Positions 2,565 through 54,330 of a stretch of DNA of 64,000 nt are shown piece by piece. The notes beneath the pieces were generated by a model. That model was given only the letters and a program-made list of their open reading frames with translations. It searched no databases and was not told the origin of the DNA. Position numbers and translations under genes: made by a program. The DNA is from an uncultured Verrucomicrobiae bacterium (GTDB lineage Bacteria; Verrucomicrobiota; Verrucomicrobiia; Chthoniobacterales; UBA10450). Positions within the stretch are counted from its first letter, which is position 1; each line of letters starts with the position of its first letter. The stretch is taken from the NCBI GenBank assembly GCA_963815455.1, contig CAWFGO010000001.1, positions 896,001 to 960,000 of the forward strand, given 5' to 3'.

Positions 2565-2659
2565 GTCATCCCGAGCGGAGTCGAGGGATCCCGTTGCAAA
2601 ACGTGCAGATAACACAACGGGATCCCTCGACCCCGAAAGCTTTCGGGGCTCGGGATGAC
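2565..2659. repeat. Family A palindromic element (GTCATCCCGAGC...GCTCGGGATGAC) with extra CCCCGAAAGCTTTCGGGG hairpin
   Basis: Terminal inverted repeats; lies between convergent genes; many related copies in window. Confidence 0.9.
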
Positions 2660-2678
2660 AGCGTGCGTTGAGTATCGA

Positions 2679-4691
2679 TCAATCCGATTGATCTTCTTCC
2701 GCCGGTTGAGACCGATGATTTTGTTCCATCGGCCGCACATTCAACGGCTGCTGGCGCCGGCCGTTCGCCTGCTCGCCTTTGTAAACGGCCTTGAAAATAT
2801 CCGCGATCATCGGCGCGGCCACGGTCCCGCCGTGCACGTTACTGCCAACGTCGCCTTCGTAAACCGCGGCGAAAGCGAATTGCGGCTGTTCGGCCGGCAT
2901 GAACCCGGCGAACCACGCGGCGGTGCGCTCCTTGTCCTTCGGTCCCCATTGCGCGGTGCCGGTTTTTCCCGCTACTTCAACATTATCGAGGCTGGCCTCG
3001 TGCCCGGTACCGCCGGGACCGTTGACGACCTCGATCAATCCGGTCCGTAATTCGTCCATCGTAATGGGCGAGGCATCGAGGGTTTTCTTGGCGCGGACTT
3101 GATAGGCGGTCACGATTTCATTGTCCAGCGTCTGGACCTGCTGGACGAGACGCGCCTGATAAAACGTGCCGCCGTTGGCGACGATTCCCACCGCTTGCGC
3201 CATTTGCAGCGGCGTGACCTGCACGTCGCCCTGGCCGATCGACAAGTTCGCGACGTCGCCGTTGAGCAATTTCCGGCCGTGGGTCGCTTTCATGTATTCG
3301 TCGTTCGGCACGCGCCCCTCCGCTTCGCCGCGCAACGGGATGCCGCACTTCGCCCCAAAACCGAGCTTCAACGCCCAATCGACGATCGGTTCCGCGCCAG
3401 TCTTGATTCCGGCCTGATAAAACCACGTGTCGCACGATTCGGTCAGCGCCCGGACGAAATTCATCGCGCCGCGGTCTTCCTTTTTCCAATTCCGAAAAGT
3501 CAGGTTGCCGATCTCGATCGAGGGCACGCATTGAAATTGATCCTCCGGTCGGACCGCGCCGCTCTCAAAAGCGGCAATGCCGACGGCAATTTTAAAGACC
3601 GAGCCTGGTGGATAAGACGATCGAAACGCCCGCGGCAAAAGCGGAATGTTCGGGTCGTCCTGAAGCGCCTTGAATTTTTCCGCCGAGATCGACGGCACGA
3701 ACACATTCGGATCGTAAGTCGGCCACGAAGCCAGGGCGAGAATGTCGCCGGTGTTAGGATCGACAATCGCGATTGCGCCGCGCTTTGCTCTCGCTTCGAG
3801 CGCTTTCTCCGCCAGTTCCTGGAGGCGGAGATCGAGAGTGGTCACAACGTTGTAGCCGGGCACCGGCGGCGTGATCAATTTCTCGGAAGTTTTGCGGCCG
3901 TCCTTGTTGAACGTGAGTTTGTATTCCCCATGCTTGCCGGTGAGCATGTCGTTGAACGTTTGCTCGAGACCCTCGCGCCCCTCTGTCTCCGGCCAAATCG
4001 TTTCATGATTGTCCACAATGCCGTCGGGATTGCGCCCGGTTTTCCCGGTGTAACCAATCACCTGGCCGGCAACTTTCCCGTTCGGATAAACGCGCACATA
4101 AATCGGCCGGACGACAATCTCCTCCGGCAGGTCGTCCTTCACTTTCTTGTATTCCGGCTCGCTCAGATTCTGCGCGATCTCGAACGGCATGATGCCGCGA
4201 TTCCGGTAGTGCCGCAGGATCGCATCGTCGGATATTTTTATTTCCCGCCCGATCAACTTCGCGGCCGCGGCAATTTTCTCGCGAGCAAACCCGATCGCCT
4301 GAGCATCGGAAAAATCGAGCGGGGTCGGAAAATTAATGGCCAGATTGTAGCTGAGTTTGTTTTGGGCAAGTGGCACGCCATGCCGATCAGTGATCTGCCC
4401 GCGCGGCGCCGGAACATCGAGGATGTAAGTGCGAGCCAGTTTCTGCGTCTCGAAAGTTGGAATGATCGTCTCTTCTTCTTCGCTCTCCGGCGGACTCGGG
4501 GACCCGCTCGGCGCCACGCTTGGCGTCGGGCTCGGCTGCAGGTCCGGAGTTGCACTCAGGGCCGGGCTGGGCTTTGCCCCCGGTGTCGCGCTTGGAGTTG
4601 GCGACTGCGCACTAGACACTGCCGGCACAGCGAAGATCGACAACGCGATGCAGAGACAAAGTTGAGTTACCCAAATTTTCCCGAGAAACAT
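2679..4691 (-). CDS. mrdA: Penicillin-binding protein 2 (class B transpeptidase)
   Basis: APRGQITDR, PPGSVFK (SxxK), SCD and KTGTAQ motifs; start set at MFLGK, downstream of the repeat. Confidence 0.85.
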   Translation of the reverse strand: MFLGKIWVTQLCLCIALSIFAVPAVSSAQSPTPSATPGAKPSPALSATPDLQPSPTPSVAPSGSPSPPESEEEETIIPTFETQKLARTYILDVPAPRGQITDRHGVPLAQNKLSYNLAINFPTPLDFSDAQAIGFAREKIAAAAKLIGREIKISDDAILRHYRNRGIMPFEIAQNLSEPEYKKVKDDLPEEIVVRPIYVRVYPNGKVAGQVIGYTGKTGRNPDGIVDNHETIWPETEGREGLEQTFNDMLTGKHGEYKLTFNKDGRKTSEKLITPPVPGYNVVTTLDLRLQELAEKALEARAKRGAIAIVDPNTGDILALASWPTYDPNVFVPSISAEKFKALQDDPNIPLLPRAFRSSYPPGSVFKIAVGIAAFESGAVRPEDQFQCVPSIEIGNLTFRNWKKEDRGAMNFVRALTESCDTWFYQAGIKTGAEPIVDWALKLGFGAKCGIPLRGEAEGRVPNDEYMKATHGRKLLNGDVANLSIGQGDVQVTPLQMAQAVGIVANGGTFYQARLVQQVQTLDNEIVTAYQVRAKKTLDASPITMDELRTGLIEVVNGPGGTGHEASLDNVEVAGKTGTAQWGPKDKERTAAWFAGFMPAEQPQFAFAAVYEGDVGSNVHGGTVAAPMIADIFKAVYKGEQANGRRQQPLNVRPMEQNHRSQPAEEDQSD

Positions 4692-4700
4692 TTTACGGTC

Positions 4701-4793
4701 GTCATCCCGAGCGAAATCGAGGGATCCCGCGGAATTGCGTTCCATCTTGCGCAACGGGATTCCTCGACTCCGCTGCGCTTCGCTCGGAATGAC
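4701..4793. repeat. Family A palindromic element
   Basis: GTCATCCCGAGCG...CGCTCGGAATGAC. Confidence 0.9.
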
Positions 4794-4822
4794 CGCGACT
4801 CTCGGCAACATCTGCGGATAAA

Positions 4823-6460
4823 TCAATGCCTTTGCAAAAATCGATGAAGTTCGTCGGCCAGTTTGCGCCCGATCCCTTCCGTCGCAGCGATCTCTTCCAC
4901 GCTCGCTTTGCGCAGTCGATTTACCGAACCGAATCTGCGCAAAAGCACGTTCTTCCGGTTCTGGCTCACCCCGGGACAATCATCGAGAATGCTTTCACCG
5001 ATCCGCTTTTTCATGAGCAGTTGGTGATAGGCGTTGGCGAAACGGTGCGCTTCATCGCGAATCCGCTGGAGCAATCGCAAAGCGCCTGAATCGAGAGGCA
5101 GTTGCAACGGCATGGCCCGGCCCGGCCGGTAAATCTCTTCGTGTTCCTTGGCCAAACCTATGATCGGCAAGTCGTGCAGGCCAAGCCGCTGCAACTCCCG
5201 ACACGCCATCGAAAGCTGTCCCTTTCCTCCATCGACAATGATGAGATCCGGCAAACGAACGGCAACAAAACTTTCGTCATTCCGAGCCCCGAATGCTTTC
5301 GGGGTCGAGGGATCCCGCGGCGCTGCCTCTTCGTTATGCAACGGGATCCCTCCACTTCGGTCGGGATGACCAGAACGAGCAATCGCTTCGGCCGGATTTT
5401 CCTGCGAAAATTCCGCAATATCGGGATTCGCCTCGCGCGCTTCGAGCAAGATCCGCGAGTACCGACGACGCACGACTTCCGCCATGCTGGCAAAATCATC
5501 CTGCCCCTCAACGGTTCGCACTCGATACCGCCGGTAATTATCCTTGTCCGGCACGCCGTCGCGGAAACAAACCATCGAAGCAACGATATGCGTTGTGGAA
5601 ATGTTCGAGATGTCGAAACACTCCATCACGCGCGGCGGGCGCGAAAGTTGCAGGGCATCGGCCAGCGCCTGCACATCCGCCATCGGATCGATCGTGCTCG
5701 GCAGACTGCCACGGGTGAACCGGCGCATCGGCTTCGTCGTGTCGCGGACGCTTTCGATCATGTCCCGCAACTCCGCCGCTTTTTCAAAATCGGTTTTGTC
5801 GGCGGCCTTCCGCATCTCCTCTTCCAGGTTCGCGATCATCTCTCGCGATCGTCCTTCGAGAAATTCGCAGGCCTGGGCGACGCGTTCCCGATATTGCTCG
5901 GCACTGATCTCGCTCAGACGCATCGGCACTTGATAAGTCGATGATTTCAATTCACGCGCAGTGGGCGAGCCGCGGCCAAAGGTCAGCACACCGAATTTCT
6001 TGCGCATGAAATTGAGCGTCTGCCGCAACGCGCCCGAATGCGCATACGGGCCGAAGTAGCGCGCACTATCGTCCTTCTTGAATCGGGCCAGGCGAAACCG
6101 CGGCCAATCCTCCGAGATGTCGATCTTAACCAGGAGAAATCGTTTATCGTCGCGGAAGGAAATATTGTAACGCGGCCGGTATTCCTTGATCAATTTGCCT
6201 TCGAGCAAAACCGATTCCGCATCGCTCCGCACGGTGTGGGTCTCAAAATCCCAGACCGCCTCCAACATGGCGCGCGTCTTCAGATCGGCTTGCGCGATTT
6301 TCGACGGCAGAAAGTATGAGCTGACCCGTTTGCGCAGGTCGCGCGCCTTGCCCACGTAAATGACGCGATTAAACCGGTCGCGCATCAAGTACACGCCGGG
6401 CTTATGCGGCACATCCTGCACCTTCTTCTGCAAATCCGGCTTCTCTTTGGTCAATCGCAT
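4823..6460 (-). CDS. uvrC: Excinuclease ABC subunit C, carrying an in-frame palindromic insertion
   Basis: GIY-YIG (PGVYLM..IYVGKA), UVR domain, ECFDIS, DGGKGQ, RDEAHRFA, C-terminal HhH. Confidence 0.95.
   Translation of the reverse strand: MRLTKEKPDLQKKVQDVPHKPGVYLMRDRFNRVIYVGKARDLRKRVSSYFLPSKIAQADLKTRAMLEAVWDFETHTVRSDAESVLLEGKLIKEYRPRYNISFRDDKRFLLVKIDISEDWPRFRLARFKKDDSARYFGPYAHSGALRQTLNFMRKKFGVLTFGRGSPTARELKSSTYQVPMRLSEISAEQYRERVAQACEFLEGRSREMIANLEEEMRKAADKTDFEKAAELRDMIESVRDTTKPMRRFTRGSLPSTIDPMADVQALADALQLSRPPRVMECFDISNISTTHIVASMVCFRDGVPDKDNYRRYRVRTVEGQDDFASMAEVVRRRYSRILLEAREANPDIAEFSQENPAEAIARSGHPDRSGGIPLHNEEAAPRDPSTPKAFGARNDESFVAVRLPDLIIVDGGKGQLSMACRELQRLGLHDLPIIGLAKEHEEIYRPGRAMPLQLPLDSGALRLLQRIRDEAHRFANAYHQLLMKKRIGESILDDCPGVSQNRKNVLLRRFGSVNRLRKASVEEIAATEGIGRKLADELHRFLQRH
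5276..5370. repeat. Family A palindromic element inside uvrC
   Basis: GTCATTCCGAGC...GGTCGGGATGAC; the ORF stays open across it. Confidence 0.9.
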
Positions 6461-6495: not shown

Positions 6496-6576
6496 GTCAT
6501 TCTGAGCGAAGTCGAAGAATCTCGTGGTGTACTTCGAGATTTCGCAACGGGATCCCTCGACTGCGCTCGGGATGAC
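6496..6576. repeat. Family A palindromic element
   Basis: GTCATTCTGAGCG...CGCTCGGGATGAC. Confidence 0.88.
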
Positions 6577-6585
6577 TAGGAATGT

Positions 6586-8835: not shown

Positions 8836-8857
8836 ACGGCCTACCTGCCGCCGGAAA

Positions 8858-8882
8858 CACGGCGACAGAGCGCCGTGGCTAC
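8858..8882 (-). repeat. GTAG-type REP hairpin overlapping the folD stop codon
   Basis: Reverse complement reads GTAG-CCACGGCG-CTCTGT-CGCCGTG. Confidence 0.7.
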
Positions 8883-9751
8883 AACGATTGCTGGGCCGCC
8901 TTCACCGTGTTCGACATCAACATCGCGATCGTCATCGGCCCGACACCGCCCGGCACCGGAGTGATCGCAGCCGCTTTCTTAGCGACTTCGTCGAACGCTA
9001 CATCTCCGACGAGTCGATAGCCGCGCTGGCTTGTCGGATCTTCGACTCGATTAATTCCTACATCGATCACCACCACGCCATCGCGCACGTGATCGGCTTT
9101 CAGAAAGTTGGCGCTTCCGATCGCCGCCACCACGATGTCGGCCGAGCGTGTAATCTCCGGGAGATTGCGGCTGCGGGAATGAACGACCGTCACTGTGGCG
9201 TCGATTCCTTTTCGCATGAGAAGCAGCGCCAGCGGTTTACCGACGATCATGCTCCGGCCCAAAATGACAACGTGCGCGCCGGCGATGTCGATCTTGCTCT
9301 CGACGAGCAATCGCTGGCAGCCCAGTGGCGTGCAGGGAACGAGGCCGGTTGGATCGCCGAGGGCGAGCTTCGCCACGTTCTCAGGATGAAATCCATCCAC
9401 GTCCTTGCGCGGATCAAGCGTGCGCACGACGGCCGCTTCATCGATCTGCTTCGGCGGCGGCGATTGAATAAGAATGCCGTGGATTGCCGGATCGCGATTT
9501 AATTCCTGCACGCGCGCGAGCAATTCAGCCTGCGTCGTCGAGGCCTGCAGCTCGAGCTTGACCGAATGCAGGCCGAGCTCCTGGCACATCTTATCCTTGG
9601 AACGCACATAGGCGCGCGACGCCGGGTTGTCGCCAACCAGAACGACCGCTAGTCCCGGCGTGAGACCCTTCGACCCCAATTCCGCGATTTCACGGCGAAG
9701 ATCGACATAGACTTTCTCCGCAATCGCGCGGCCATCGATTAGATTGGCCAT
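8879..9751 (-). CDS. folD: Bifunctional methylenetetrahydrofolate dehydrogenase/cyclohydrolase
   Basis: [21 protein letters not shown] and [11 protein letters not shown] motifs; start at MANLIDG. Confidence 0.96.
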
Positions 9752-9792: not shown

Positions 9793-9819
9793 GAGATCCT
9801 TCGCTTCGCTCAGGATGAC
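9793..9819. repeat. Family A half element
   Basis: GAGATCCTTCGCTTCGCTCAGGATGAC, nearly identical to the right arm of the 54.3 kb copy. Confidence 0.75.
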
Positions 9820-9827
9820 AGGGAATG

Positions 9828-12560: not shown

Positions 12561-12584
12561 GTAGGGGAAGCTGACAGCTTCCCC
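12561..12584 (+). repeat. GTAG-type REP hairpin
   Basis: GTAG followed by GGGAAGCTG-A-CAGCTTCCC. Confidence 0.65.
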
Positions 12585-12871: not shown

Positions 12872-12983
12872 TCTTCGGGCTCCGTATGTGTGTGTATGCG
12901 AGAGATTTGATCTAGCGTGGGTTTATAATTACCATAATACGATCGAGCAAGGCAAGTACTTTTTTAGGCCTGTTTTCCCAGCT

Positions 12984-13049
12984 GTAGCGGCGGCCTCTGG
13001 CCGTCGCAAATTTCCTCCTGGGAGACCGACGGTCATAGACCGTCGCTAC
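12984..13049. repeat. GTAG...CTAC REP doublet overlapping the mtnP stop codon
   Basis: GTAGCGGCGGCCTCTGGCCGTCGC ... CGACGGTCATAGACCGTCGCTAC. Confidence 0.8.
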
Positions 13050-14008: not shown

Positions 14009-15399
14009 ATGCCCAAATTTTTCATCAAGACCTACGGCTGCCAGATGAACGAGCGCGACTCGGAACAGGTCGCGCATTCGCTCAAGCGCGGGGCTATGAG
14101 CGGGTCGCGCAGGAAATCGAGGCCGACGTGGTGTTATTGAACACGTGCAGCGTGCGCGACATGGCCGATCAAAAAGCGCTCGGAAAAATGGGGATGCTGG
14201 GACAAATCGCAAAACAACGCCCGGAAGTGGTGTTCGGTTTTCTCGGCTGCATGGCCCAGGCCCGGGGCCAATCGCTGCTGAAAAATTTGCCGCATGTCGA
14301 TCTCGTCGTTGGCACCCAAAAATTTCATCGCGTGGCCGATTACGTGGATGAACTGGTCGCGCGAAAAAACGAGGTTGTAGCTGGGATCGCCGATCCCAGC
14401 CGCCGTCGCATGAACGATCTTCGTTTTTCGATTGTCGATGTTGCCGACGAAGCCGGGTCGCAGGAAACGATTCGTGAACAGCAACTCGCGCCAAAACAGG
14501 CGACCGCGTTCGTTTCGATCATGCAGGGATGCAACATGCATTGCACTTTTTGCATCGTGCCGCAGACGCGCGGCGCGGAGCGCAGCCGCTCGATTGGCGA
14601 GATCGTCCGCGAAGTACGCGATCTCGTCTCCCGCGGCGTGAAGGAAGTCACTCTGCTCGGGCAGATCGTGAATTTATACGGCCGGCACGAATTTCCGAAG
14701 ATCGACAACAAATCGCCCTTTGTTCAGTTGCTCGAGGCCGTGCACGCCGTCGACGGGCTCGAACGCCTCCGTTTTACCTCGCCGCACCCGATCGGATTTC
14801 GTGACGATCTGATCGGCGCGCTGGCCACGCTGCCAAAACTGGCCGAGCACGTTCATTTGCCGTTGCAATCCGGATCGAACAAGATCCTGAAGGCGATGCA
14901 CCGCACTTACACCGCGGAGAAATATGTCGATCTTGTCCGGCGACTCCGGACGGCGCGTGAGGAAATCGCGATTACCACGGATATCATCGTCGGATTTCCG
15001 GGCGAAACGGACGACGATTACAAACAGACGCGCGATCTGGTGGAAGAAATACAATTCGATAATGCATTCATCTTTCGCTACTCGCCCCGGCGCGATACGC
15101 CGGCTGCGGAAATGGCGACCCAGATCGACGAAAAGATCAAGGCAGAGCGCAACCAGGACTTGCTCCAAATCGTGAACGAGTCCAACCACCGCAGTCTCGA
15201 GCGGTTGGTCGGCCGAAATGCGGAAGTAATTTGCGAAGGGCCGAGCAGAACGAATCCGGCCCGCCTGATGGGCCGCACCCGCACCAACAAGATCGTCGTG
15301 TTCGAGGGCGGCGACGAGTTGGTGGGCGAGCTTGTCGATCTTCGGATCGAGCGGGCCAACGGATTCAGCTTGTATGGCACGCCTCTTTCGCGAACCTAG
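14009..15399 (+). CDS. miaB: tRNA-i6A37 methylthiotransferase MiaB, with a 1-nt frameshift near 14085
   Basis: MPKFFIKTYGCQMN in one frame; NTCSVR, GCNMHCTFC and TRAM domain in the next. Confidence 0.92.
14377..14400 (+). repeat. GTAG-type REP hairpin inside miaB
   Basis: GTAGCTGGGATC-GCC-GATCCCAGC, encoding VAGIADPS. Confidence 0.7.
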
Positions 15400-17969: not shown

Positions 17970-18080
17970 GAGGCTAAATGGAGCGCCTAAGATGTAAGGC
18001 TTCCGATTTTATTCGGCAACCGTAAAGTCACCTGAAGTCGCGGTGAGTTCAATGAGCGTACGAAAACAGCGATAATTTGA

Positions 18081-18140
18081 GGGATTCCTCCCGCCTTCGC
18101 CTAAGGCTACGGCGCGGCATGCGACTTCGCTCGGAATGAC
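18081..18140. repeat. Family A half element with nested family C element (about 18091-18122)
   Basis: GGGATTCCTC[CCGCCTTCGCCTAAGGCTACGGCGCGGCATGC]GACTTCGCTCGGAATGAC. Confidence 0.8.
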
Positions 18141-18149
18141 AAAATGGGA

Positions 18150-23525: not shown

Positions 23526-24677
23526 TTATCTCAGCCGCGACGGTGTGACAAACGACCTGCCTTTCTCCGACGACTCGGGTGAACCGCCCCTACCTTTGCC
23601 CTTATTACCCCTAAGGCAGGGACGATTCACCGGAATCGCCCGTTTCCGGCTCTTTCTGGCATGATGAAACAAATACTGCTGGGCATACCCTCCGTGTTCA
23701 CCAAAGTATTCTTGTGTGAACACCTGAAGCCGCGATGCGTTCAATTTTGGTGTGCGCGGAAAATAATTCTCCCGCAGGACACGCTCGATCCAGACGTCGA
23801 TTGGAAACGCCCGAAGGCGCTCGTAGGCAAAAAGCATCACACAGTTAGCAACCTTTGCGCCCACGCCCGGGAGCTGGCACAGCCTGGCCCGAAGATCGAC
23901 ATCGGATAATGCCGCGATCTGTCCTAGATCGACCTCTCCATTCGCCACCAGCCGGGCTGTCCCGAGCAGATTCTTGGCCCGATAACCGAGCGCGCATTCA
24001 CGCAGTTCTTGTTCGGAACTTTGGGCCAGCCGCCCCGCGGTAGGAAACGTGTAGACCGTGTGCTTATTGGTGGATCGAGCAGTCCTCAATGCCGGTCCGG
24101 CTCGGACCTCGATGTTAACAAATGTCGGCGAAGCCGAGTCGATTAGCATCGTCCGCGGAGCGGTCGATCCACCCTGCCGATTCTGAATCGAATCCTGAAA
24201 AGTAAGCTTGCTCGGTTCACCGAACCGTTCCCGCAGCGCCCGGGATATTTGACGAATGTGCGCGACCTGCTTCATCGACGAACAAATAAACATCGCCAGA
24301 CACTCCCATTTTGGTTGCCGCATAATCCGCAACCCCCGGCAAAAATCGCGCGCCGCATTCATGATCGGGTCGCTCGGAAACGTCGCGCAGATCTCCGCCA
24401 ACGGATGATCGAGCGCGAAATATTTGTGAATTGTGGCATGGGCATCGTGCCCATGTCTTTGTCCACATCGGCTGGAAGCCGATGCCACTTTCGCGCGCAG
24501 CGTTCCACCAACCTGCTCGACATAAGCCGGAACATCTCCAATCGTTCCCACAAATCCGTTGCCTGCGACGCCGTAGCCGCGCGAAGGCGCGTTGATCTTC
24601 TCCCAGTGGAAGACCTGGCCGGAATCGAGCGTTTTCGCGAGATCGAAGTCAGGCGCGTCAATTTCAATGACATTCAT
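23526..24677 (-). CDS. 8-oxoguanine DNA glycosylase (OGG_N + HhH-GPD) with multiple palindromic insertions
   Basis: FDLAKTLDSGQVFHW, GLRIMRQ, LGYRAK, LPGVGAKVANC, FPIDVW and GGYAQQYLF motifs. Confidence 0.88.
   Translation of the reverse strand: MNVIEIDAPDFDLAKTLDSGQVFHWEKINAPSRGYGVAGNGFVGTIGDVPAYVEQVGGTLRAKVASASSRCGQRHGHDAHATIHKYFALDHPLAEICATFPSDPIMNAARDFCRGLRIMRQPKWECLAMFICSSMKQVAHIRQISRALRERFGEPSKLTFQDSIQNRQGGSTAPRTMLIDSASPTFVNIEVRAGPALRTARSTNKHTVYTFPTAGRLAQSSEQELRECALGYRAKNLLGTARLVANGEVDLGQIAALSDVDLRARLCQLPGVGAKVANCVMLFAYERLRAFPIDVWIERVLRENYFPRTPKLNASRLQVFTQEYFGEHGGYAQQYLFHHARKSRKRAIPVNRPCLRGNKGKGRGGSPESSEKGRSFVTPSRLR
23572..23641. repeat. Two GTAG/GCAG-type hairpins in the glycosylase C-terminal extension
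   Basis: Reverse-complement GTAGGGGCGGTTCACCCGAGTC, and GCAGGGACGATTCACCGGAATCGCCC. Confidence 0.55.
24069..24173. repeat. GGTGGATC...GATCCACC element inside the glycosylase, with nested family D motif (24090-24107)
   Basis: Homologous to the intergenic copy at 32171-32258. Confidence 0.85.
24433..24488. repeat. Family B element (GTGGCAT...ATGCCAC) inside the glycosylase
   Basis: Double hairpin; homologous to the leuS copy. Confidence 0.85.
24561..24589. repeat. Family C element inside the glycosylase
   Basis: GCCTGCGACGCCGTAGCCGCGCGAAGGCG, encoding APSRGYGVAG. Confidence 0.75.
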
Positions 24678-30510: not shown

Positions 30511-30521
30511 GTCAGAATAAT

Positions 30522-30545
30522 GCGACGGTCGGAGACCGCCGCTAC
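30522..30545 (-). repeat. GTAG-type REP, same family as 12984-13049
   Basis: GCGACGGTCGGAGACCGCCGCTAC. Confidence 0.7.
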
Positions 30546-30549
30546 AGAA

Positions 30550-32170: not shown

Positions 32171-32258
32171 GGTGGATCGGCCGCTCCGCCGGACGATTTT
32201 GAAAAATGCGGCTTTGCCGCCCAATTTTACCATCGAGCAAGGGACTGCTCGATCCACC
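32171..32258. repeat. GGTGGATC...GATCCACC palindromic element abutting the mscL stop
   Basis: Terminal IR; homolog inside the glycosylase gene. Confidence 0.85.
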
Positions 32259-32716
32259 TACGTCGCTGGCGCGCCGGAAAACTGCGTGGTGCAGTGCGGG
32301 CAGCGAGTCGCTTTGATCGGAATGCTCATGGCGCAGGCCGGACAATCCTTGGCGACAGCAGCCGCAGTCGGCGACGGCCTCTTCAATTTGTTCATCGCCT
32401 TCACCACGAGGAAAATACAGAAGGCGACGATAAGAAAATTGATTATCAAGGTAACAAAGTTTCCGTAGTTCCAGGTCACCGCGCCGGCCTTGGCTGCCTC
32501 GGCTGGAGTGTTAAACACGCCCCCGCCCGGCGCGTCTTTCAGGATCATGAACTTGTTCGAGAAATCCAGACCGCCCGTGAGCAGTCCAATCGGCGGCATC
32601 AGGATGTCTTTGACCAGCGAGTTAACAATTCCACCAAACGCCGCGCCGATGATTACGCCGACGGCCAGGTCAACCGCATTTCCCTTAACAGCGAACTCTT
32701 TGAATTCCTTCCACAT
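32258..32716 (-). CDS. mscL: Large-conductance mechanosensitive channel with C-terminal CxxC-CxxC
   Basis: [21 protein letters not shown] and YGNF motifs. Confidence 0.95.
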
Positions 32717-35542: not shown

Positions 35543-35582
35543 CGGATTATCTCTTAGGAAAGCAGGAAAGCAGGAAAAGAAA

Positions 35583-36170
35583 ATGGATTTACTCCTGGCC
35601 ACGCGGAATGCGCATAAGACTCGCGAAATTCAGCGCATGCTCGGACCGCATTTCGCCGTGCGCGATTTGTCCGATCATCCCGAGATTCCCGAAATTGAGG
35701 AAAATGGAAGAACGTTCGAGGAAAATGCAGTTCTGAAGGCGATCGCCGTATCGGGAAGATTGCCCGGACTCGTCGTCGCAGATGATTCGGGCCTGGAGGT
35801 GGACGCGCTGAACGGCGCGCCTGGAATTTATTCCGCTCGTTACGCGGGGCCAAAGGCGACCGATCAGCAGAACAACGACAAGTTGCTACACGAGCTTGAA
35901 CGCACGGGCGCTGAAGAAGATCGGAGATCGGCGCGATTTTGCTGCGTTCTGGCCCTGGCCCAGGATGGACGTGTGCTCGAGACGCTCGAGGGAGTGGTCG
36001 AGGGAACGATTGTCGATGCTCCGCGCGGGCGCGGTGGATTCGGTTACGATCCGATTTTCAAGCCGAACGGATTCGATCAAACATTCGGCGAGATCGAGTC
36101 CGCAGAGAAAGATCGAGTGAGCCACCGGGCCTGCGCGCTGGAAAAATTAAGGGCGCGTTTGGCAACCTGA
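35583..36170 (+). CDS. rdgB: Non-canonical purine NTP pyrophosphatase
   Basis: ATRNAHK, ADDSGL, PGIYSARY, GFGYDP and SHR motifs. Confidence 0.95.
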   Translation: MDLLLATRNAHKTREIQRMLGPHFAVRDLSDHPEIPEIEENGRTFEENAVLKAIAVSGRLPGLVVADDSGLEVDALNGAPGIYSARYAGPKATDQQNNDKLLHELERTGAEEDRRSARFCCVLALAQDGRVLETLEGVVEGTIVDAPRGRGGFGYDPIFKPNGFDQTFGEIESAEKDRVSHRACALEKLRARLAT

Positions 36171-36248: not shown

Positions 36249-36276
36249 GAAATCCCTCGCTAACGCTCGGGATGAC
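36249..36276. repeat. Family A half element
   Basis: GAAATCCCTCGCTAACGCTCGGGATGAC. Confidence 0.65.
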
Positions 36277-36327
36277 AGGCGCGGTACGGCAGTGACCGAA
36301 CTGGCGCATCGAAACGCGCGGCGACAG

Positions 36328-36805
36328 TTATCGAGGAGGCTTTGGAGGCGGCGGCGCGCCTGGAGGCCCGCCGGGGGCCGCGGGAGCCCCGGGTGCCTGA
36401 GCAGCTCGAACCTGGTAGCCGACCTTTTTGATCTTCGCGAGCCGAACTTTGTCGAGTACCTGAGATCACGTCACCGTGCAAGGCCATCATCTCGGCGCTA
36501 ATCGAAACTTTGATTTCAGGATTTGCCTGATGCAGCTGATACAACTGCGGAAGGACCTGGTCATCCTGGACAAACTGGCCATCGAAGTAAACCGTGTTGC
36601 CTTCCCGCACCTGGATCGAAACATAATCCTTCTTGGGCGGGCCCGGGGGCGGCGGCCCGGAAGGCAAATTCACGTTTATGCCTTTCATGTGAGTCTGGCT
36701 CAAGCTCACCATCATGAAGCTGGCCAGGAGGAAGAACATGATGTCGATCAAGGGGATGATCTCGATTCGAGCCTTTTTGTGAGGAAGAGGTGAAGACAGT
36801 CGCAT
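36328..36805 (-). CDS. exbD: ExbD/TolR protein, with a 1-nt frameshift near 36460
   Basis: IEIIPLIDIMFFLL; C-terminus VLDKVRLAKIKKVGYQ lies in the shifted frame. Confidence 0.82.
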
Positions 36806-39797: not shown

Positions 39798-39812
39798 TTA
39801 GGAATAAGAACG

Positions 39813-39835
39813 GTAGGGCGAGACTCTGTCGAGCC
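39813..39835 (+). repeat. GTAG-type REP-like motif
   Basis: GTAGGGCGAGACTCTGTCGAGCC. Confidence 0.5.
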
Positions 39836-39849
39836 GACTATTTTACCGT

Positions 39850-39940
39850 GTCATCCTGAGCGAAGCGCAGCGAAGTCGAAGGATCCCGCGGCGAACCTTA
39901 AACTGGTCCAACGGGATTCCTCGACTTCGCTCGGAATGGC
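39850..39940. repeat. Family A palindromic element
   Basis: Reverse complement of 28522-28612 with 2 mismatches. Confidence 0.92.
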
Positions 39941-39947
39941 GAGGTGA

Positions 39948-40709: not shown

Positions 40710-42696
40710 CGTATTTGGTCAGCAACGCTTGAAACCGTGGATCGTTTCGCAGCGGGTCCCACGCCGGACTCAGTTTCAGAGTCGGCACGGTTACTTCACT
40801 TGGGCGGTTTAACAGGCCATCCAAAATTGCGATTGCTTGATCGTTATCGCCGAGAATTGTATGAATCTCGGCCACTTGCGCGGTGATTTGGGGGCCTTGG
40901 AATGCGTCTTTGCTTTCCGGCCGCAGCTGCGTCGCACGTTCTGCCTCGGCCAGGGCGGCGTCCTTTTCGCCAAGCCAGGCATGGACTCTGGCCAATTGAA
41001 TGTGCCACTCGGGCTCGTCGGGTTTCTGTTTCAGTTGCTCCTCACAAATGTTCTTTGCTTTCAAAAATTCTGCCCGCGCCTTGGTCTCCTGGTTTAGCCC
41101 TTTTTGGGCGAGGCCGATGGCAAAGTATTTCAGCGCGATCGATCCTGGGATCGTCGCAAAAAGATCATCGGGACAGTTTTCCGCCAGCTCCAGCACTTCC
41201 TTGTATTTGCGTTGGAGAAGCAGAAAATCCACTTGTCCGCCGGTGATCTTGAGCTTTTCTTCTTTGCTCATCGGAATTGATTTCGCCTTTTCCAGCGCCT
41301 TTTCCGCGACGCTAAGATCTCCTTTCTCGCTGATGGCGAGTTTGGCCTTGATTTCCCAAAGGCCCAGGCTCTGGGGCTTCAACTTGAGGGCGCGATCGAC
41401 CGTTTTATTTGCTGCATCGAAATTTCGATGCATGGCGTAATTGAAAACGAGATTTTGCAAGACCCATGTATCATTTGGGTTCAAAGCCGCGGCCTTTTCC
41501 AGATTGGCAGTCGATTCCGCCCATTTCCCCTGGCGACGCTGGATGGCGCCGATGGCAAGATAAGCTTCTGCATCGTTAGGCAAGCCACGCTGAGCGGTTT
41601 GAAATTCGCTCAGGGCGGCGTCGTAATTGTTGTCGCCATAATAGTAGAAGAATCCCAGCGCGAGATGCGCTTCAGAGAGATCGGGCTGAAGCTCGAGTGC
41701 GCGCTGGGCCATCGTCCGCGCTTTCTCGCGGCGTTCCGGCGTCCGATCATAACTGTGGATAATCCAGCTTTCCAATTGCGAGCAGCGCGCCAGAGCGAGC
41801 GCGAAATTTGGATCGAGATCGATCGCTCGCGTGTATGCCTTTTCCGCCTGCTTCAGCTTGTCCAAGTCCTCCACAGCGCAGGAGAGATCGTGGCCTTGGA
41901 CAAAGGCGAGATAAGCCTCGTCGTTCTGGGTCGGTTTGAGCTCCATTTGCGCTTTTTCCGCGGGCGAAAGTCTGGCTTGCAACGCAGCGGCGATCTCTTT
42001 CGCGAGATCTGTCTGGATGGCGAACACATCCGTCACATCGCGGTCGTAATCGTTTGCCCACATATGCTCGTCGGTATTAGCGTCGATCAATTGCACGTTG
42101 ACGCGCACCCGGTTTCCAAACCGCCGGACGCTGCCCTCAAGAATGTTTGAAACACCGAGTGCTTTGCCGATGTCGCGAACGTTCGGCGCTTTGCCGCGGT
42201 ACTGCATTACCGAGGTGCGCGAGATCACTTTCAAGTCGCCGATCTTCGACAAATTCGTAAGAACATCGTCCTGGATGCCGTCAGCAAAGTAAGCGTTCTC
42301 CTTATCGTCGCTTAGATTTTCAAACGGCAGAACCGCAATCGACTTGTCGATCTTGTGGGCGGCGGCGCGCGGCAGAATGAAGAGCCCGGCCAGCGCCGAA
42401 ACGAGCACGCCCGCGCTAACGAGCAATATGACATTGCGACGCCGATGCGACGGCCCCGCCGCCGTGGGAGTTGTTTTGATTCCCTCAGGAGTGATATCGA
42501 ACGCCCAAGCCAAAATGAGCGCGATCGGAAAACCAAGCAGCAGTGCCGCAATGACCAGACGCAGCGACCAGTTCGGCAACTCCCACGCCGGAAACGCGGC
42601 CGAAGCGAGTTGAATAATGCCGCCCGCTGCGATGATATAAGCCACCGCAACCCGGTAGACTTTTCGCCGCTTCATTTCTTGGAGGAAACCGCTCAT
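40696..42696 (-). CDS. Membrane-anchored TolB-like/TPR protein
   Basis: EMKRRKVYRVA TM domain, KSIAVLPFENLS, TPRs, WDPLRNDPRF. Confidence 0.85.
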   Translation of the reverse strand: MSGFLQEMKRRKVYRVAVAYIIAAGGIIQLASAAFPAWELPNWSLRLVIAALLLGFPIALILAWAFDITPEGIKTTPTAAGPSHRRRNVILLVSAGVLVSALAGLFILPRAAAHKIDKSIAVLPFENLSDDKENAYFADGIQDDVLTNLSKIGDLKVISRTSVMQYRGKAPNVRDIGKALGVSNILEGSVRRFGNRVRVNVQLIDANTDEHMWANDYDRDVTDVFAIQTDLAKEIAAALQARLSPAEKAQMELKPTQNDEAYLAFVQGHDLSCAVEDLDKLKQAEKAYTRAIDLDPNFALALARCSQLESWIIHSYDRTPERREKARTMAQRALELQPDLSEAHLALGFFYYYGDNNYDAALSEFQTAQRGLPNDAEAYLAIGAIQRRQGKWAESTANLEKAAALNPNDTWVLQNLVFNYAMHRNFDAANKTVDRALKLKPQSLGLWEIKAKLAISEKGDLSVAEKALEKAKSIPMSKEEKLKITGGQVDFLLLQRKYKEVLELAENCPDDLFATIPGSIALKYFAIGLAQKGLNQETKARAEFLKAKNICEEQLKQKPDEPEWHIQLARVHAWLGEKDAALAEAERATQLRPESKDAFQGPQITAQVAEIHTILGDNDQAIAILDGLLNRPSEVTVPTLKLSPAWDPLRNDPRFQALLTKYGGKA

Positions 42697-43810: not shown

Positions 43811-45013
43811 ATGTCCCGTCGTTATATTTTTTCCTCCGAGTCGGTTGGCGAAGGCCATCCCGACAAAGTTTGCGATACGATTTCCGATGCGGTGCTCGAT
43901 GCCTGCCTCGCGCAAGATCGACATAGCCGGGTCGCGTGCGAGACCTACGCCAAGTGCAACATCGTCATCGTGGGCGGTGAAATTACGATCCCGAGCCTGG
44001 CCGAGGACGCGCCGCTCGAAAGCGTTGTGCCGATTTCGGAGATCGTGCGCAACACCGTTCGCGAGATCGGCTATGTGAACGACGACGATGTGTTTCACGC
44101 CGATCGGATCGGCATCCAGAACATTCTCACCAAACAATCGCCTGATATCGCACAGGGCGTGGACGCGCGCGCAGCCGATGGAAAAGACACGGCCGAGCAA
44201 GGCGCAGGCGATCAAGGGCTGATGTTCGGATTCGCCTGCAATGAAACGCCGGAGCTAATGCCCGCGCCGATCATGTTTGCCCACCGACTCGGACGCGAGC
44301 TCACCCGCATTCGCAAGAGCGGAAAAGTCGGCTGGCTGCGGCCGGATGCGAAATCGCAGGTCTCAGTCATCTACGAGAACGACAAGGCAGTCGGCATCTC
44401 CTGCGTCGTGGTTTCCACCCAGCACTCCCGCGACGTGAAACATTCTGAGATTCGCAGCTTCGTCATCGAAGAGGTGATCAAAAAAGTTCTGCCGGCGGAG
44501 ATGTTGAGCGAGAGCACACAATTTCTCATCAATCCCACCGGCAATTTTGTCGTCGGCGGGCCACAGGGCGATACCGGCCTAACGGGTCGCAAGATTATCG
44601 TGGACAGTTACGGTGGCATGGGCCGCCACGGTGGCGGCGCGTTTTCGGGAAAAGATCCGAGCAAGGTAGATCGCAGCGCAGCCTACATGGCGCGCTGGGT
44701 GGCGAAAAATGTCGTGGCCGCGGGTCTGGCGTCGAAATGCGAAATCCAATTCGCCTACGCCATCGGCCATCCCAAACCGCTTAGCGTTCACATCAACACA
44801 TTTGGCACCCACACGGTCGATGAAGAAGCGATCGAGCGCGCTGTGCTCGCGACCTTCAGTTTCACCCCCGCCGACATCATCAAGCAGCTCGATTTGCTCC
44901 GCCCGATCTATTCAAAGACGACCAACTACGGACACTTCGGGAAGATCGATGATCCGGATATTACCTGGGAGAAAACCGACAAAGCCGCCGAACTGAAGAA
45001 AGCGGCAAAATAA
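43811..45013 (+). CDS. metK: Methionine adenosyltransferase
   Basis: [17 protein letters not shown] and GGGAFSGKD motifs. Confidence 0.98.
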
Positions 45014-46451: not shown

Positions 46452-46467
46452 CGCCAGCGGCGGTCTC

Positions 46468-51381: not shown

Positions 51382-52968
51382 ATGACGAAACGAGTCCTGA
51401 TATTGTCGATCTTATTTACCATTTGCGCGGGGAGTGTGGTTTGCGCCCAAACCATGCAACCACCGAAAATTTCGGCTCCGCCGCAGCCTGCGCATCACGA
51501 GACATATACCTGCCCGATGCATCCGGAAGTGGTGTCGGACAAACCGGGGAAATGTCCCAAATGCGGGATGACACTGGTGCTGATTGAAAAAGGCAAACGC
51601 CCACCCGTCCGCCGTAGCTTTGGCGAAGGAGGAACGCCCAAGGCCGAGCAGCATGCGACCCACGACGCGAATGGGATGGCGATGCCGCATTCGCCGGCCG
51701 AGCACGCGAGCGAAATGAAGATGTCGATGCAATCTTCGATCAACATTGCCGATCCGATGGGCCGCGAAAGTTCGGGCACGGCTTGGAATCCGGACTCCAC
51801 GCCGATGTACGGACACATGATGATGTTCGGTGACGACATGCTCATGTTGCACGGCGGAATTTTGCCGCGTTATACCAATGTGAGTTCGCGCCGCGGCGAC
51901 GACCGCATCGACGCGCCGAACTGGTTCATGGCGATGTATTCGCATCCGTTCAACGAGAACATGCAGCTTGGCGGACGTCTCATGATGAGCCTCGATCCGT
52001 TGACCGAACAGGGCCGAGGCTATCCGCTGCTTTTTCAAAGCGGCGAGACCTGGCACGAACGGGCGCTCCACGATCGCCAGCATCCGCATGATTTGTTCGA
52101 CGAGCTTTCCCTTTCCTATTCGCAAAAGTTCGATCTCGATCTTAGCGCGTTCATTTATTTCGGCTATCCGGGCGAGCCGGCGCTCGGGCCGCCGACGTTC
52201 ATGCATCGACTCAGCGCGATGGATAATCCCGACGCCCCAATCGGACATCACTGGCAAGATTCGACGCATATCACCTTCGGCGTCGCCACCGCTGGGCTGC
52301 AATGGCGCAATCTGAAAATCGAGGGCAGCATTTTCACCGGACGCGAACCGGATGAGGATCGCTACGACTTCGATCGCCCGAAGTTCGATTCCTACAGCGG
52401 CCGGATTTCGTGGAATCCGACATCAAATCTCGCGCTCCAGGTCTCGCACGGTTACCTCCGAAGCCCGGAAGCAAGTGCCAGTCCGGCTCGGACCGAGCCG
52501 AACGTCAACCGGCATCGCACGACCGCGTCCGCCATCTGCAATCTCCCGCTCGGCCCCGATCGGAATTGGTCGAGCAGTTTCGTCTGGGGAAAGAACAACG
52601 ACGCAGGCGAGAAGACGCAATCGTTTTTGCTCGAATCAAATTATCAACGTGGCCGCGACACCGTTTACGGGCGCTGGGAACTCGTGGAAAAATCGGGACA
52701 CGAACTGGTACTTAAGCCGATCGACCAGGAAAAAGTATTTACGGTCAACGCGCTCACCGCCGGTTACGTGCACGATTTTTCGCACGGCGATAAGATCGAC
52801 ATCGGACTCGGCGGGCAATTCACGTTGAATGTTTGGCCGAGCGAACTTGATCGTTATTACGGCGATGGGGTCGGTTACGGATTCCAAGTTTTTCTTCGCC
52901 TTCGTCCTTCACGGCATGGTCATGATGCACATGAGCACGGCAAGCATGTTCCCGGATTCGAAAAATAA
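51382..52968 (+). CDS. Heavy-metal-binding domain (YTCPMHP..CPKC) plus probable outer-membrane beta-barrel
   Basis: Signal peptide, YTCPMHPEV, Met/His-rich linker, SGTAW.P and DRQHPHDLF motifs. Confidence 0.8.
   Translation: MTKRVLILSILFTICAGSVVCAQTMQPPKISAPPQPAHHETYTCPMHPEVVSDKPGKCPKCGMTLVLIEKGKRPPVRRSFGEGGTPKAEQHATHDANGMAMPHSPAEHASEMKMSMQSSINIADPMGRESSGTAWNPDSTPMYGHMMMFGDDMLMLHGGILPRYTNVSSRRGDDRIDAPNWFMAMYSHPFNENMQLGGRLMMSLDPLTEQGRGYPLLFQSGETWHERALHDRQHPHDLFDELSLSYSQKFDLDLSAFIYFGYPGEPALGPPTFMHRLSAMDNPDAPIGHHWQDSTHITFGVATAGLQWRNLKIEGSIFTGREPDEDRYDFDRPKFDSYSGRISWNPTSNLALQVSHGYLRSPEASASPARTEPNVNRHRTTASAICNLPLGPDRNWSSSFVWGKNNDAGEKTQSFLLESNYQRGRDTVYGRWELVEKSGHELVLKPIDQEKVFTVNALTAGYVHDFSHGDKIDIGLGGQFTLNVWPSELDRYYGDGVGYGFQVFLRLRPSRHGHDAHEHGKHVPGFEK
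51605..51632. repeat. Family C element inside a CDS
   Basis: CCGTCCGCCGTAGCTTTGGCGAAGGAGG, encoding VRRSFGEGG. Confidence 0.7.
52476..52493. repeat. Family D 18-bp motif inside a CDS
   Basis: TGCCAGTCCGGCTCGGAC, encoding ASPART. Confidence 0.72.
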
Positions 52969-52979
52969 ACAATCGCTCT

Positions 52980-53068
52980 GTCACTCCTGAGCGCAGCGGA
53001 GTGGAAGGATCCCGTGGAATCGCCTCAGGGTATCGCCACGGGATTCCTCGACTTTCGCTCGGAATGGC
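52980..53068. repeat. Family A palindromic element
   Basis: GTCACTCCTGAGCG...CGCTCGGAATGGC. Confidence 0.85.
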
Positions 53069-53120
53069 GGGTCTAGCTTCTCTTGTCATCGCGCGCGAAA
53101 TGCGTGAAGCTGGACGCTCC

Positions 53121-54188
53121 ATGGCGCATCGCCTGCCGAAGCAGAATTACCAGGACATCGAACGAATCATTGAGTTCGATTTTGTGCGCGCGACGGAAGC
53201 AGCGGCGCTCAATTCGTTACGCTGGCTCGGCCGCGGCGATAAGGAATCGGCCGATGCCGCTGCCTGCGACGCCATGCGCGGGATGTTCGATCTCATGAAC
53301 ATTTGCGGCGAAGTTGTGATCGGGGAAGGAATCAAGGACGACGCGCCGGGCATTTTCAAAGGCGAACAACTCGGCACCTGGATTCCCGGTTCGCCGCCGT
53401 TCGATATCGCCATCGATCCGATTGACGGCACCACCAACATTTCCAAGGGATCGCCGAACTCGATCAGTTGCATCGCAGCCGCCAGCCCGGAGGAAGGTGT
53501 AAAGGTTGCGCTGCGCGACGTGCCTTCGTTTTACATGTCGAAGCTCGCTTACGGGCCGGACGTGATCCATTACACGCAAAAGCGAGGCGACTCGCTCAAC
53601 CTCGAGGCGCCCATTCCCGAAACGCTCGCCATCGTGGCGCGCGCGCTGGAGAAACGAGTTCAGGATGTCAACGTGATGATGCTCGACCGGCCGCGGCACA
53701 AGGAGATTGTCGAGGCAATTCGCCTCGCCGGCGCGTCGGTGCGGATGATCGGCGACGGCGATATCGCCGCGGCCATGGCGCCGTCGTTGCCCGAGAGCAA
53801 TATCGATCTCTACATGGGAATTGGCGGTTCGCCCGAAGCGGTGCTAGCCGCGGCGGGAATCAAATGCCTCGGCGGCGAGATGCAGTGCAAAATGTGGCCG
53901 CGCGACGACAAAGAACGGAAACAGCTGGTCGATGTGTGCGGGAAAAAAGAACTCGACCGCATCTTTTTTGCCGACGATCTGGCCAACGGCAAGAACATCG
54001 TTTTTTGCGCAACCGGAATCAGCGATAGCGCGTTATTGCGAGGGGTACGGGGCCAGGGAACAAGCGCCATTACGCATTCGATCCTGATGCGGGCCAAGAG
54101 CAAGACGGTCCGTTTCATTCGCGCCCGGCACGATCTGCAAACGAAAACGATCCGGCTCCGCTCGGACAAACGTGAGCACCTGATTTAG
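53121..54188 (+). CDS. glpX: Class II fructose-1,6-bisphosphatase
   Basis: RATEAAA, VVIGEG, DPIDGT, DRPRH and GIGGSPE motifs. Confidence 0.93.
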   Translation: MAHRLPKQNYQDIERIIEFDFVRATEAAALNSLRWLGRGDKESADAAACDAMRGMFDLMNICGEVVIGEGIKDDAPGIFKGEQLGTWIPGSPPFDIAIDPIDGTTNISKGSPNSISCIAAASPEEGVKVALRDVPSFYMSKLAYGPDVIHYTQKRGDSLNLEAPIPETLAIVARALEKRVQDVNVMMLDRPRHKEIVEAIRLAGASVRMIGDGDIAAAMAPSLPESNIDLYMGIGGSPEAVLAAAGIKCLGGEMQCKMWPRDDKERKQLVDVCGKKELDRIFFADDLANGKNIVFCATGISDSALLRGVRGQGTSAITHSILMRAKSKTVRFIRARHDLQTKTIRLRSDKREHLI

Positions 54189-54195
54189 CGTTGGC

Positions 54196-54330
54196 GTCAT
54201 CCCGAGTCGCGTAGACGACGAGGGATCTCTCATTCGGAGGCCACGGTCGCAAACAATTCTGAATCCTGAGCGCTGTCGAATCGCAGGGGTTACATTCCAT
54301 CGCGAGGTCCTTCGCTTCGCTCAGGATGAC
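54196..54330. repeat. Family A element, long-spacer variant
   Basis: GTCATCCCGAG...GCTCAGGATGAC. Confidence 0.8.

Follow-up and report, generated by a model that had tools for sequence, protein, structure and literature searches.

A 64,000-nucleotide stretch of DNA from a soil bacterium, a relative of Candidatus Udaeobacter (Chthoniobacterales), harbors short hairpin repeats of several families, and some of the copies lie in frame within genes for conserved proteins. This stretch, called the window below, corresponds to G000:C1:896001-960000, where G000 denotes the assembly studied (3.62 Mb, 7 contigs, 57% G+C). The repeats form at least eight dispersed families of the repetitive extragenic palindromic (REP) type, which have most likely been spread by the genome's own REP-associated tyrosine transposases (RAYTs), the in-frame copies surviving in permissive loops of proteins; a probability of about 0.8 is assigned to this reading. 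RAYTs, which are Y1/HUH transposases, would act on single-stranded hairpin DNA and mobilise the repeats. Copies landing in frame and free of stop codons in permissive loops would pass selection, and their predicted translation products are additional surface loops that are largely disordered.

In-frame insertions in proteins of the window

For each host protein of the window, the comparison drew on orthologues from as many as 30 relatives at the level of genus, family or order (labelled G001 onward, with G001 in the same genus). This comparison revealed nine in-frame insertions in five proteins: one in uvrC, three in OGG, two in leuS, two in a protein with an HMBD domain and one in miaB (Table 1). 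The alignments show the in-gene copies to be clean insertions: each adds a peptide at a site that is empty in close relatives or occupied there by another element. An earlier, sequence-only reading of the window had proposed that such elements add new peptide loops to core proteins, which agrees with this result, and had placed about a dozen copies in six proteins, of which the five named above stand. The sixth, GT9, has no insertion and is collinear with its orthologue in G001 (309 vs 312 residues). Repeat-free relatives have gaps at the uvrC and OGG sites, not homologous loops of the same length.

Three repeat families are inserted in OGG, a single 300-residue enzyme. Its C-type insert is absent from all 12 aligned relatives, G001 among them. 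At the B site, the loop is empty in G011, G007, G018, G009 and G017, while a different hairpin, GACCGGTTAAACCGGTC, is found in G001 and G013. At the E site, all 27 matching relatives break at query residues ~158-200; the insert is absent from 11 of the 12 aligned relatives, and G013 instead has a C-type hairpin there. At both the B and the E sites, the same loop is thus occupied by different families in different genera. G001 is cleanly without two of the three inserts and holds a different element at the third site. In an AlphaFold model based on a 12-row alignment (mean predicted local distance difference test (pLDDT) score 66.9, predicted template modelling score 0.68), the three inserts fall between secondary-structure elements, and it is at them (residues 31-38, 68-77 and 161-203) and in the C-terminal tail (328-383) that pLDDT drops below 50.

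The family A element in uvrC lies where the UvrC_RNaseH_dom Pfam match extends over 208 residues for 158 profile positions. The insert site is a clean gap in G007, G011, G006, G022, G024, G021 and G029, and a homologous insert (HPERS...ARND) is present in G001, G010, G017, G014, G004 and G002. The loop has unrelated inserts in other genera, and two unpublished genomes, G008 and G015, agree, although no conclusion is based on these two by themselves. In leuS, the B palindrome, which has 61 BLAST matches genome-wide, occupies a position at which a short MGG..KP..G sequence is found in 13 of the 14 aligned relatives and an unrelated insert in G001, and the D-type SEPDGQ is shared, among 14 relatives, only by G011 and G001. 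At the C-type site of the HMBD-domain protein, G007, G001 and G009 are 9-12 residues shorter; the D insert of this protein is absent from all three relatives having the gene. The miaB insert, EVVAGIADPS, is absent from G001, G007 and G009. The sequence-only reading had listed miaB among the host genes; its element is one 30-nt GTAG hairpin in frame, not of the A type, and nhmmer found no second copy of it (R5) in the genome.

Two further features of these genes were observed. leuS has three more inserts specific to G000, ~20-25 residues each, at residues ~291-315, 356-375 and 462-483 (window 34103-34741); they were rejected as repeats or hairpins because BLAST recovers only themselves and they are not palindromic. 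In miaB, a 1-nt frameshift near codon 27 (window 14010-14130) places the N-terminal MPKFFIKTYGCQMNERDSEQVAHSLK in another frame at a G run, probably through a long-read indel error.

Table 1. Positions of repeats, in-frame insertions and embedded cassettes (window coordinates unless a contig is named)
Feature	Position	Strand	Context
A element, full, in uvrC (gene 4823-6460, minus)	5276-5372	-	in frame; residues ~363-397, peptide SGHPDRSGGIPLHNEEAAPRDPSTPKAFGARNDES
C-type GTAG hairpin in OGG (gene 23526-24677, minus)	24564-24593	-	30 nt, residues ~29-38 (...NAPSRGYGVA)
B palindrome in OGG	24433-24488	-	in frame, residues ~62-80
135-nt insertion in OGG	24070-24206	-	E (24069-24173) with D motif inside (24090-24107), residues ~158-202
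B palindrome in leuS (gene 32732-35602, minus)	33603-33651	-	peptide SGMGFQPMSHRQDADAT, net gain ~12 residues
D motif in leuS	33903-33920	-	18 nt, six residues SEPDGQ
C-type hairpin CGCCGTAGCTTTGGCGAAGGAGG in HMBD-domain protein (gene 51382-52968, plus)	51610-51632	+	peptide PPVRRSFGEGGT
D motif in HMBD-domain protein	52476-52493	+	18 nt, six residues SASPAR
R5 GTAG hairpin GTAGCTGGGATCGCCGATCCCAGC in miaB (gene 14128-15399, plus)	14377-14400	+	within 30-nt, 10-residue insertion
A, full	2565-2660	no strand	between convergent stops of aldo-keto reductase (2557) and PBP2 (2679)
A, full	4701-4795	no strand	uvrC-PBP2 spacer; precedes likely PBP2 start ATG 4691
A, full	6496-6577	no strand	between uvrC start and M50 peptidase stop
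A, full	28522-28613	no strand	hisS-aspS junction; overlaps hisS stop (28603), upstream of aspS OB fold
A, full	39850-39943	no strand	intergenic; R4 hairpin adjoins
A, full, long variant	54196-54331	no strand	downstream of glpX
A-like dimer, degenerate	52990-53066	no strand	between HMBD-domain protein stop (52968) and likely glpX start
Single A unit GATCCTTCGCTTCGCTCAGGATGAC	9793-9821	no strand	upstream of folD
Single A unit	36252-36277	no strand	3' end of exbD (gene 36260-36805, minus)
C hairpin (18089-18125) and single A unit (18126-18142)	18089-18142	no strand	dnaA-dnaN spacer
C hairpin	24704-24740	no strand	intergenic, upstream of OGG
E element	32171-32259	no strand	intergenic, adjoins mscL stop
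R1 GTAG REP GTAGCGGCGGTCTCCGACCGTCGC	30522-30545	-	intergenic; same REP flanks RAYT gene C3:533888-534418
R1 variant (3 mismatches)	12984-13007	+	between dacA and PNP-family gene
R3 GTAG hairpin	12561-12583	no strand	near R1 variant 12984-13007
R2 GTAG REP GTAGCCACGGCGCTCTGTCGCCGTG	8856-8886	-	folD 3' end
R4 GTAG hairpin	39811-39839	no strand	beside A copy 39850-39943
Cassette in alaS	G000:C2:122846-126142 (L198)		AlaRS, 1099 aa
Cassette in metH	G000:C3:169648-174156 (L199)		MetH, 1503 aa
Cassette in recG	G000:C5:89947-92697 (L200)		RecG, 917 aa
Cassette in carB	G000:C1:1469351-1473118 (L201)		CarB, 1256 aa

Number, anatomy and distribution of the hairpin families

The several non-autonomous families that the sequence-only reading had attributed to this lineage are found throughout the genome. 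Counted with seeded nhmmer profiles, they amount to 496 loci of eight families on five contigs, or 0.8% of the genome: A 133, B 48, C 83, E 66, R1 98, R2 19, R4 14 and the AATCTGCG repeat 35. Single short seeds returned only themselves for R3, R5 and D, which were counted by BLAST or regular expressions; families built de novo from 12- and 15-mers were set aside, those at K=12 being swamped by the word AAGATCGACA and by composition, and single linkage at K=15 having chained 2753 loci into a single cluster. Like A, the families B, C, D and E and several GTAG hairpins, all named in that reading, are real and far above chance. A units number 264 in the genome vs 2 for the reversed word, the 26-nt A arm pattern 61 vs 0 for its control, and the D core palindrome 17+12 vs 0 for its reversed word; R1 has two matches in the window vs 0.00 expected. 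Furthermore, a seed-free BLAST search of the window against the whole genome returned 25 stretches with at least three copies elsewhere. These include all the A copies, B (24433-24490, 33601-33653), C (18079-18143, 24560-24600, 24706-24740), E (24110-24176, 32171-32259), the GTAG hairpins at 8856-8886, 12561-12583, 12982-13008, 30516-30549 and 39811-39839, the AATCTGCG tandem at 26676-26706 and a stretch at 42211-42342 inside a TPR-repeat gene.

The copies are mostly extragenic, as REP elements had been said normally to be. In a strict test, which asked for a reading frame without stops through the element, flanked on each side by 50 or more codons and a positive score in a validated dicodon model, 442 of the 496 loci fail, while 45-52% of 1500 random positions pass. 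The 54 passing loci (11%, a rough lower bound, since the test caught three of the nine insertions verified in the window) lie in 46 open reading frames (ORFs), in several frames, both orientations and at unrelated sites, and consist of A 11, B 18, C 9, E 3, R1 10, R4 2 and one AATCTGCG tandem. Tolerance in genes tracks open frames: B, the most gene-tolerant family, has 18 of 48 copies in ORFs (37.5%) and 5.04 of six frames open vs 3.67 when shuffled, whereas A has 11 of 133 (8%) and 2.49 of six. A Pfam scan of 40 of the 46 host ORFs (leaving out uvrC, OGG, leuS, metH and two short ORFs) matched families in 37, many of which are DNA-repair or tRNA enzymes. Repeat-bearing ORFs encode UvrA, Mfd, RecN and DnaE for repair and replication; ArgRS, PheT, a class I tRNA synthetase, TsaD, QueG and a MiaB-like enzyme among tRNA-related proteins; and PurL, IspG, ThiC, HemA, PGI and CoaE among others. 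For example, a UvrA-like ORF of 1974 residues (L216, G000:C1:1058309-1064230) carries four in-frame elements, two A, one C and one E.

Family A has the form GTCATYCYGAGCG...CGCTCRGRATGAC with a length of 80-136 nt. In the window it has seven full copies and four that are halves or degenerate, matching the 11 full or half copies counted earlier from the letters. Most of the 133 genomic loci are dimers of 80-100 nt. A [T/C]GTC tag precedes 224 of the 264 units (85%; 155 with T and 69 with C). The stem starts AT (ATYCY/RGRAT), with only five pairs covarying perfectly and a loop of ~12 nt. In 49 full copies, chosen by a pattern permitting any Y/R combination, the variable tetramer pairs perfectly within its own arm in 47 and 44 copies, while pairing from arm to arm is seen in only three; the two arms are different variants in 46 of the 49, against ~36 expected from the marginal frequencies. 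Since pairing is within the arms and the arms differ, A is a head-to-head dimer of TGTC/CGTC-tagged small hairpins ([T/C]GTC-ATYCY...RGRAT) around a third, central hairpin, and not one long hairpin. Perfect long palindromes seem to be avoided.

Sixteen of the 18 genomes from the same family contain the A arm pattern, copy numbers in this family ranging from 0 to 72, and it is missing from all 12 genomes that represent other families of the order (controls 0), which points to a lineage-specific expansion. A 29-nt pattern of A was matched in at least 122 stretches, mostly from metagenome-assembled genomes (MAGs) named Candidatus Udaeobacter, Chthoniobacterales, Spartobacteria or Verrucomicrobia; among the matches listed, there is one each in Hymenobacter guriensis, a Thermomicrobiales MAG and a Clostridia MAG.

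Some A copies fall within long ORFs of PBP2, aspS, folD and glpX, where they likely sit upstream of the true starts. The likely PBP2 start is the ATG at 4691, followed by a membrane anchor, MFLGKIWVTQLCLCIALSIFAV, so that the A copy beside it is outside translated PBP2; the long ORF, from 4979, overlaps uvrC, and its coding score is negative upstream of the element. In aspS, the Pfam tRNA_anti-codon domain begins only at residue 61 of the long ORF, preceded by the A copy at 28522. The FBPase_glpX match begins at ORF residue 57 and the THF_DHG_CYH match of folD at residue 35, after the A-like copy at 52990 and the A unit at 9793, respectively.

The other families carry different tags: GTAG in R1 to R5 and C, and GTGG...CCAC in B and E. 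B is a double-foot palindrome, GTGGCAT...ATGCCAC, and E has the form GGTGGATC...GATCCACC. D is a motif, TGCCCGTCCGGCTCGGAC, with a small palindrome GTCCG-NNN-CGGAC. The AATCTGCG repeat occurs in the window as a tandem of three at 26676-26706.

By Pfam, the window otherwise contains ordinary chromosomal genes around dnaA and dnaN. No Rfam family matched in the window at gathering thresholds, and a tRNA search of it found none. Another signal is the 10-mer AAGATCGACA, with 37 sites in the window vs 0.13 expected, on both strands and mostly within genes (e.g., 2459-2468, 9698-9707, 27618-27627, 43914-43923), and 1124 in the genome vs 0 for the reversed word. Its density resembles that of a DNA-uptake-sequence-like or other genome-wide signal word.

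Y1 transposases, stand-alone and embedded

The genome has 16 matches to PF01797 (Y1) above cut-off, two of which are of the IS200 type (NF033573). NF047646, the model of the REP-associated tyrosine transposase with an 80-bit cut-off, is passed by five stand-alone genes and two embedded copies, and two further genes are just under the cut-off; the HUH and Y-x-x-x-N-P motifs align in the RAYT genes. Inverted R1 doublets are located on both sides of the RAYT gene C3:533888-534418, E ends bracket another on both sides (C2:698488-699069), C copies are near the Y1 gene C2:520741-521199, and other GTAG hairpins bracket five further Y1 genes. Since five stand-alone genes exceed the RAYT cut-off and hairpins of their own bracket several of them, a system of REPs, or REP doublets forming hairpins (REPINs), with RAYTs is supported. 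The RAYT association suggested by the sequence-only reading thus holds for some families: R1 and E flank such genes, and C copies are near a third. It does not extend to A and B.

Some Y1 proteins have features of their own. The stand-alone RAYT L197 (G000:C1:202231-202800) contains a ~40-residue repeat-like insert (…SAPAATTGR… twice) between the HUH and Tyr motifs. Two Y1 proteins of ~330 residues, L186 (C3:725778-726785) and L187 (C1:597246-598208), are bracketed by 23-32-nt inverted repeats, GGGGTCATGTCTTTATTCTTGTC, and not by GTAG hairpins, as in the type associated with terminal inverted repeats (TIRs).

Four of the 16 Y1 matches are complete REP-RAYT-REP cassettes, in frame, free of stops and without a start or stop codon of their own, within alaS, metH, recG and carB outside the window (Table 1). 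Each of these host genes is single-copy in the genome. Each insert spans nearly the full RAYT profile, the AlaRS and MetH copies exceeding the cut-off, and retains the HUH and Y-x-x-x-N-P motifs. The cassettes are bracketed by inverted hairpin doublets, and the flanks of the one in RecG recur ~60 times in the genome. Of five relatives examined, none has the alaS or the metH cassette, the same-genus G001 included; G017, G004 and G022 (another family) do have the recG cassette, which G001 and G007 lack, and G004 alone has the one in carB. Because the hosts are single-copy core genes and the frames are open, we infer that the embedded RAYTs are translated as part of the host protein.

Hundreds of proteins from Udaeobacter-type bacteria conserve the RecG form. 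In a collection of 5.8 billion proteins, 944 proteins of 504-1605 residues match the RecG insert at E <=1e-10. Apart from three AlaRS forms, nearly all of the best 120 of the 944 are RecG proteins that contain PF01797, and they come, where the source is named, from Verrucomicrobia, Udaeobacter or Chthoniobacterales; HUH is kept in 116 of these 120, and HUH together with the Tyr motif at constant spacing in 109. Inteins were rejected as an explanation of the cassettes, as a Pfam scan of the four hosts found no Hint or intein family. An IStron or other intron was also rejected: no intron family was found at E <=0.1, and only a sub-threshold Ysr141 match appeared (39.5 vs 196 bits). MetH has, at residues 1157-1211, a second insert of ~55 residues that matches short ORF pieces elsewhere in the relative G017, which suggests another repeat family.

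These cassettes open a further view, to which we give even odds: the transposase of the repeats may live inside essential proteins, and the in-gene hairpins of the window may be by-products of the same process. RAYT would then be made as a domain of the fork-remodelling helicase RecG and of other core enzymes, and this placement would shield it from deletion. In RecG, it would also be brought to single-stranded DNA at stalled forks, where hairpin repeats would be cut and pasted. In the literature searched, no report of embedded RAYT cassettes was found among the top-ranked results for in-frame RAYT, and none for RAYT with RecG. A survey of TnpA_REP left out proteins of excessive length, which it treated as fusions or errors (Quentin et al., 2018, PMC6006769).

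Alternative explanations and known systems

Several points weigh against spread by RAYTs. No A or B locus has one of the 16 Y1 genes within 900 nt of it, leaving the largest family, A, without an identified mobilising enzyme. Several genera have the uvrC insert in common; part of the in-gene copies are therefore old, and these may have lost their mobility. The differences seen are all between genera or species, with no case of transposition, of an excision product or of polymorphism within a population, and expression of the inserts is a prediction. The assembly is a long-read MAG with indel errors, of which the miaB frameshift is an instance, and the in-ORF tally uses a home-made dicodon model, with the recovery given above.

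A, and perhaps B, could instead be a fossil or an element resembling MITEs (miniature transposable elements with inverted repeats), moved by another TIR-recognising transposase or immobile, with the in-gene copies as old relics. The distance of A and B from Y1 genes would fit such an origin, as would the sharing of the uvrC insert by at least eight genera, the inverted repeat formed by the A ends, which is MITE-like, and the existence of CGTC REPs without a dedicated transposase (PMC3733652). However, the covariation within arms and the heterotypic arms fit dimers of hairpin units and not a TIR element, and a copy number varying from 0 to 72 among genera of one family argues for recent activity. 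Nor was a target-site duplication seen at the A copies inspected or at the OGG junctions, although no search for a parent insertion sequence or for A-flanked DDE transposases was made. An origin of this kind is unlikely for A and B. It is still more improbable that the hairpins are structures selected by the host, such as terminators, mRNA stabilisers or protein-binding sites, spread by recombination or gene conversion, with in-gene copies selected for a role in mRNA or protein. Most copies do lie just after or between genes, many REPs are argued to be RNA elements (PMC3733652), and covariation within arms indicates selection on, or templated maintenance of, small hairpins; but the 46 host ORFs have copies of the same families at unrelated sites, in either orientation and in several frames, different families take the same loop across genera, the OGG inserts are predicted to be disordered, and cognate transposase genes flanked by the repeats are present. 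Function may have been acquired after insertion. Hardly any weight is left for ancestral variable loops that happen to resemble repeats, or for assembly artefacts. While the insertion sites are hypervariable in relatives and the assembly does have indel errors, as in miaB, the DNA of the copies within genes agrees over 30-100 nt with family members from intergenic sites, G001 cleanly lacks two of the three OGG inserts and has a different element at the third site, and the homologous uvrC insert is found in independent assemblies.

Spread by RAYTs has parallels in known systems. In the REPIN-RAYT systems studied by Bertels and Rainey and by Nunvar et al., inverted REP doublets are reportedly the replicating unit, and single-copy RAYTs flanked by REPs are said to persist vertically for long periods. 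In contrast, about a dozen RAYT-like genes and many families, some of them intragenic, are present here in a 3.6-Mb genome. In the bacterial interspersed mosaic elements (BIMEs) of Escherichia coli, different REP types are joined in one dimer, resembling the heterotypic A arms; REPIN-RAYT and BIME systems have been described as extragenic.

In-frame palindromes are known from Rickettsia, whose palindromic elements (RPEs) represent an extreme case (Ogata et al., 2000, as cited in PMC10969869). Like the A and E copies, RPEs are palindromes of ~100-150 nt that interrupt unrelated housekeeping genes without breaking the frame and are considered compatible with protein folding (PMC10969869). Nearly half of the RPE copies are in ORFs (PMC10969869), compared with 8% for A; the host is an obligate intracellular alphaproteobacterium, and the likeness is in behaviour only. 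In the genome studied here, unlike the RPE case, stand-alone and embedded RAYT genes accompany the repeats. The sequence-only reading took Rickettsia as the main precedent, but it is not the only one: Di Nocera, De Gregorio and Rocco (2013, PMC3733652) describe GTAG and CGTC REPs within genes of Opitutus terrae (Verrucomicrobia) and of others. In that work, genomes have several REP families, mostly extragenic and often head-to-head dimers, and a minority of copies lie wholly within ORFs. The intragenic copies encode 10-80 residues, mainly in uvrA/B, recBCD, dnaE and tRNA-synthetase genes, and O. terrae has the most intragenic GTAG cases (PMC3733652). Short tagged palindromes in several families, dimers, and hosts among repair and tRNA-synthetase genes are common to both cases, while here the lineage (Candidatus Udaeobacter/Chthoniobacterales) and the sequences are different, the arms of A differ systematically, and three families are found in OGG.

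GTAG REPs have RAYTs, while CGTC REPs, which lack a dedicated transposase, consist of a terminal CGTC (often TGTC), an 8-9 bp stem starting A-T, T-A, a loop of 4-5 nt and a short unpaired tail (PMC3733652). A shares with them the tag, the AT stem start, the dimer habit and the lack of an adjacent Y1 gene, but its unit has a 5-bp stem and a longer loop, and in these lengths the match is not clear. The B and E ends fit the double-foot long REPs of TnpA_REP subclass 2.4, which start GT[AG]G and end C[TC]AC (Quentin et al., 2018, PMC6006769). Frame-keeping REP insertions inside tnpA_REP itself are described there, and the insert of the RAYT L197 resembles the in-frame REP inserts of this subclass. 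Heterotypic A arms, repeated hits on loops by different families across genera and embedded RAYT cassettes were not found in the excerpts of PMC3733652, PMC6006769 and PMC10969869. The intragenic hairpin repeats reported here thus belong to a phenomenon already in print for Rickettsia and Opitutus. No literature on palindromic repeats in Udaeobacter was found.

Relatives of Candidatus Udaeobacter belong to the most abundant bacteria in soil, and their genomes are small. Despite this, ~0.8% of the DNA studied here consists of at least eight hairpin families, with more than 50 copies within core enzymes. The RPE/Opitutus phenomenon is thereby extended to another lineage, with unusually dense cases such as the three families in OGG and the four elements in the UvrA-like ORF. 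For annotation, the repeats create long spurious N-terminal extensions, as in PBP2, aspS, folD and glpX, and many false small ORFs. Repeated hits on the same loops map the permissive loops of proteins and provide a natural experiment on the gain of protein segments, and the embedded RAYT cassettes, if they are translated, would represent a new way for a transposase to persist.

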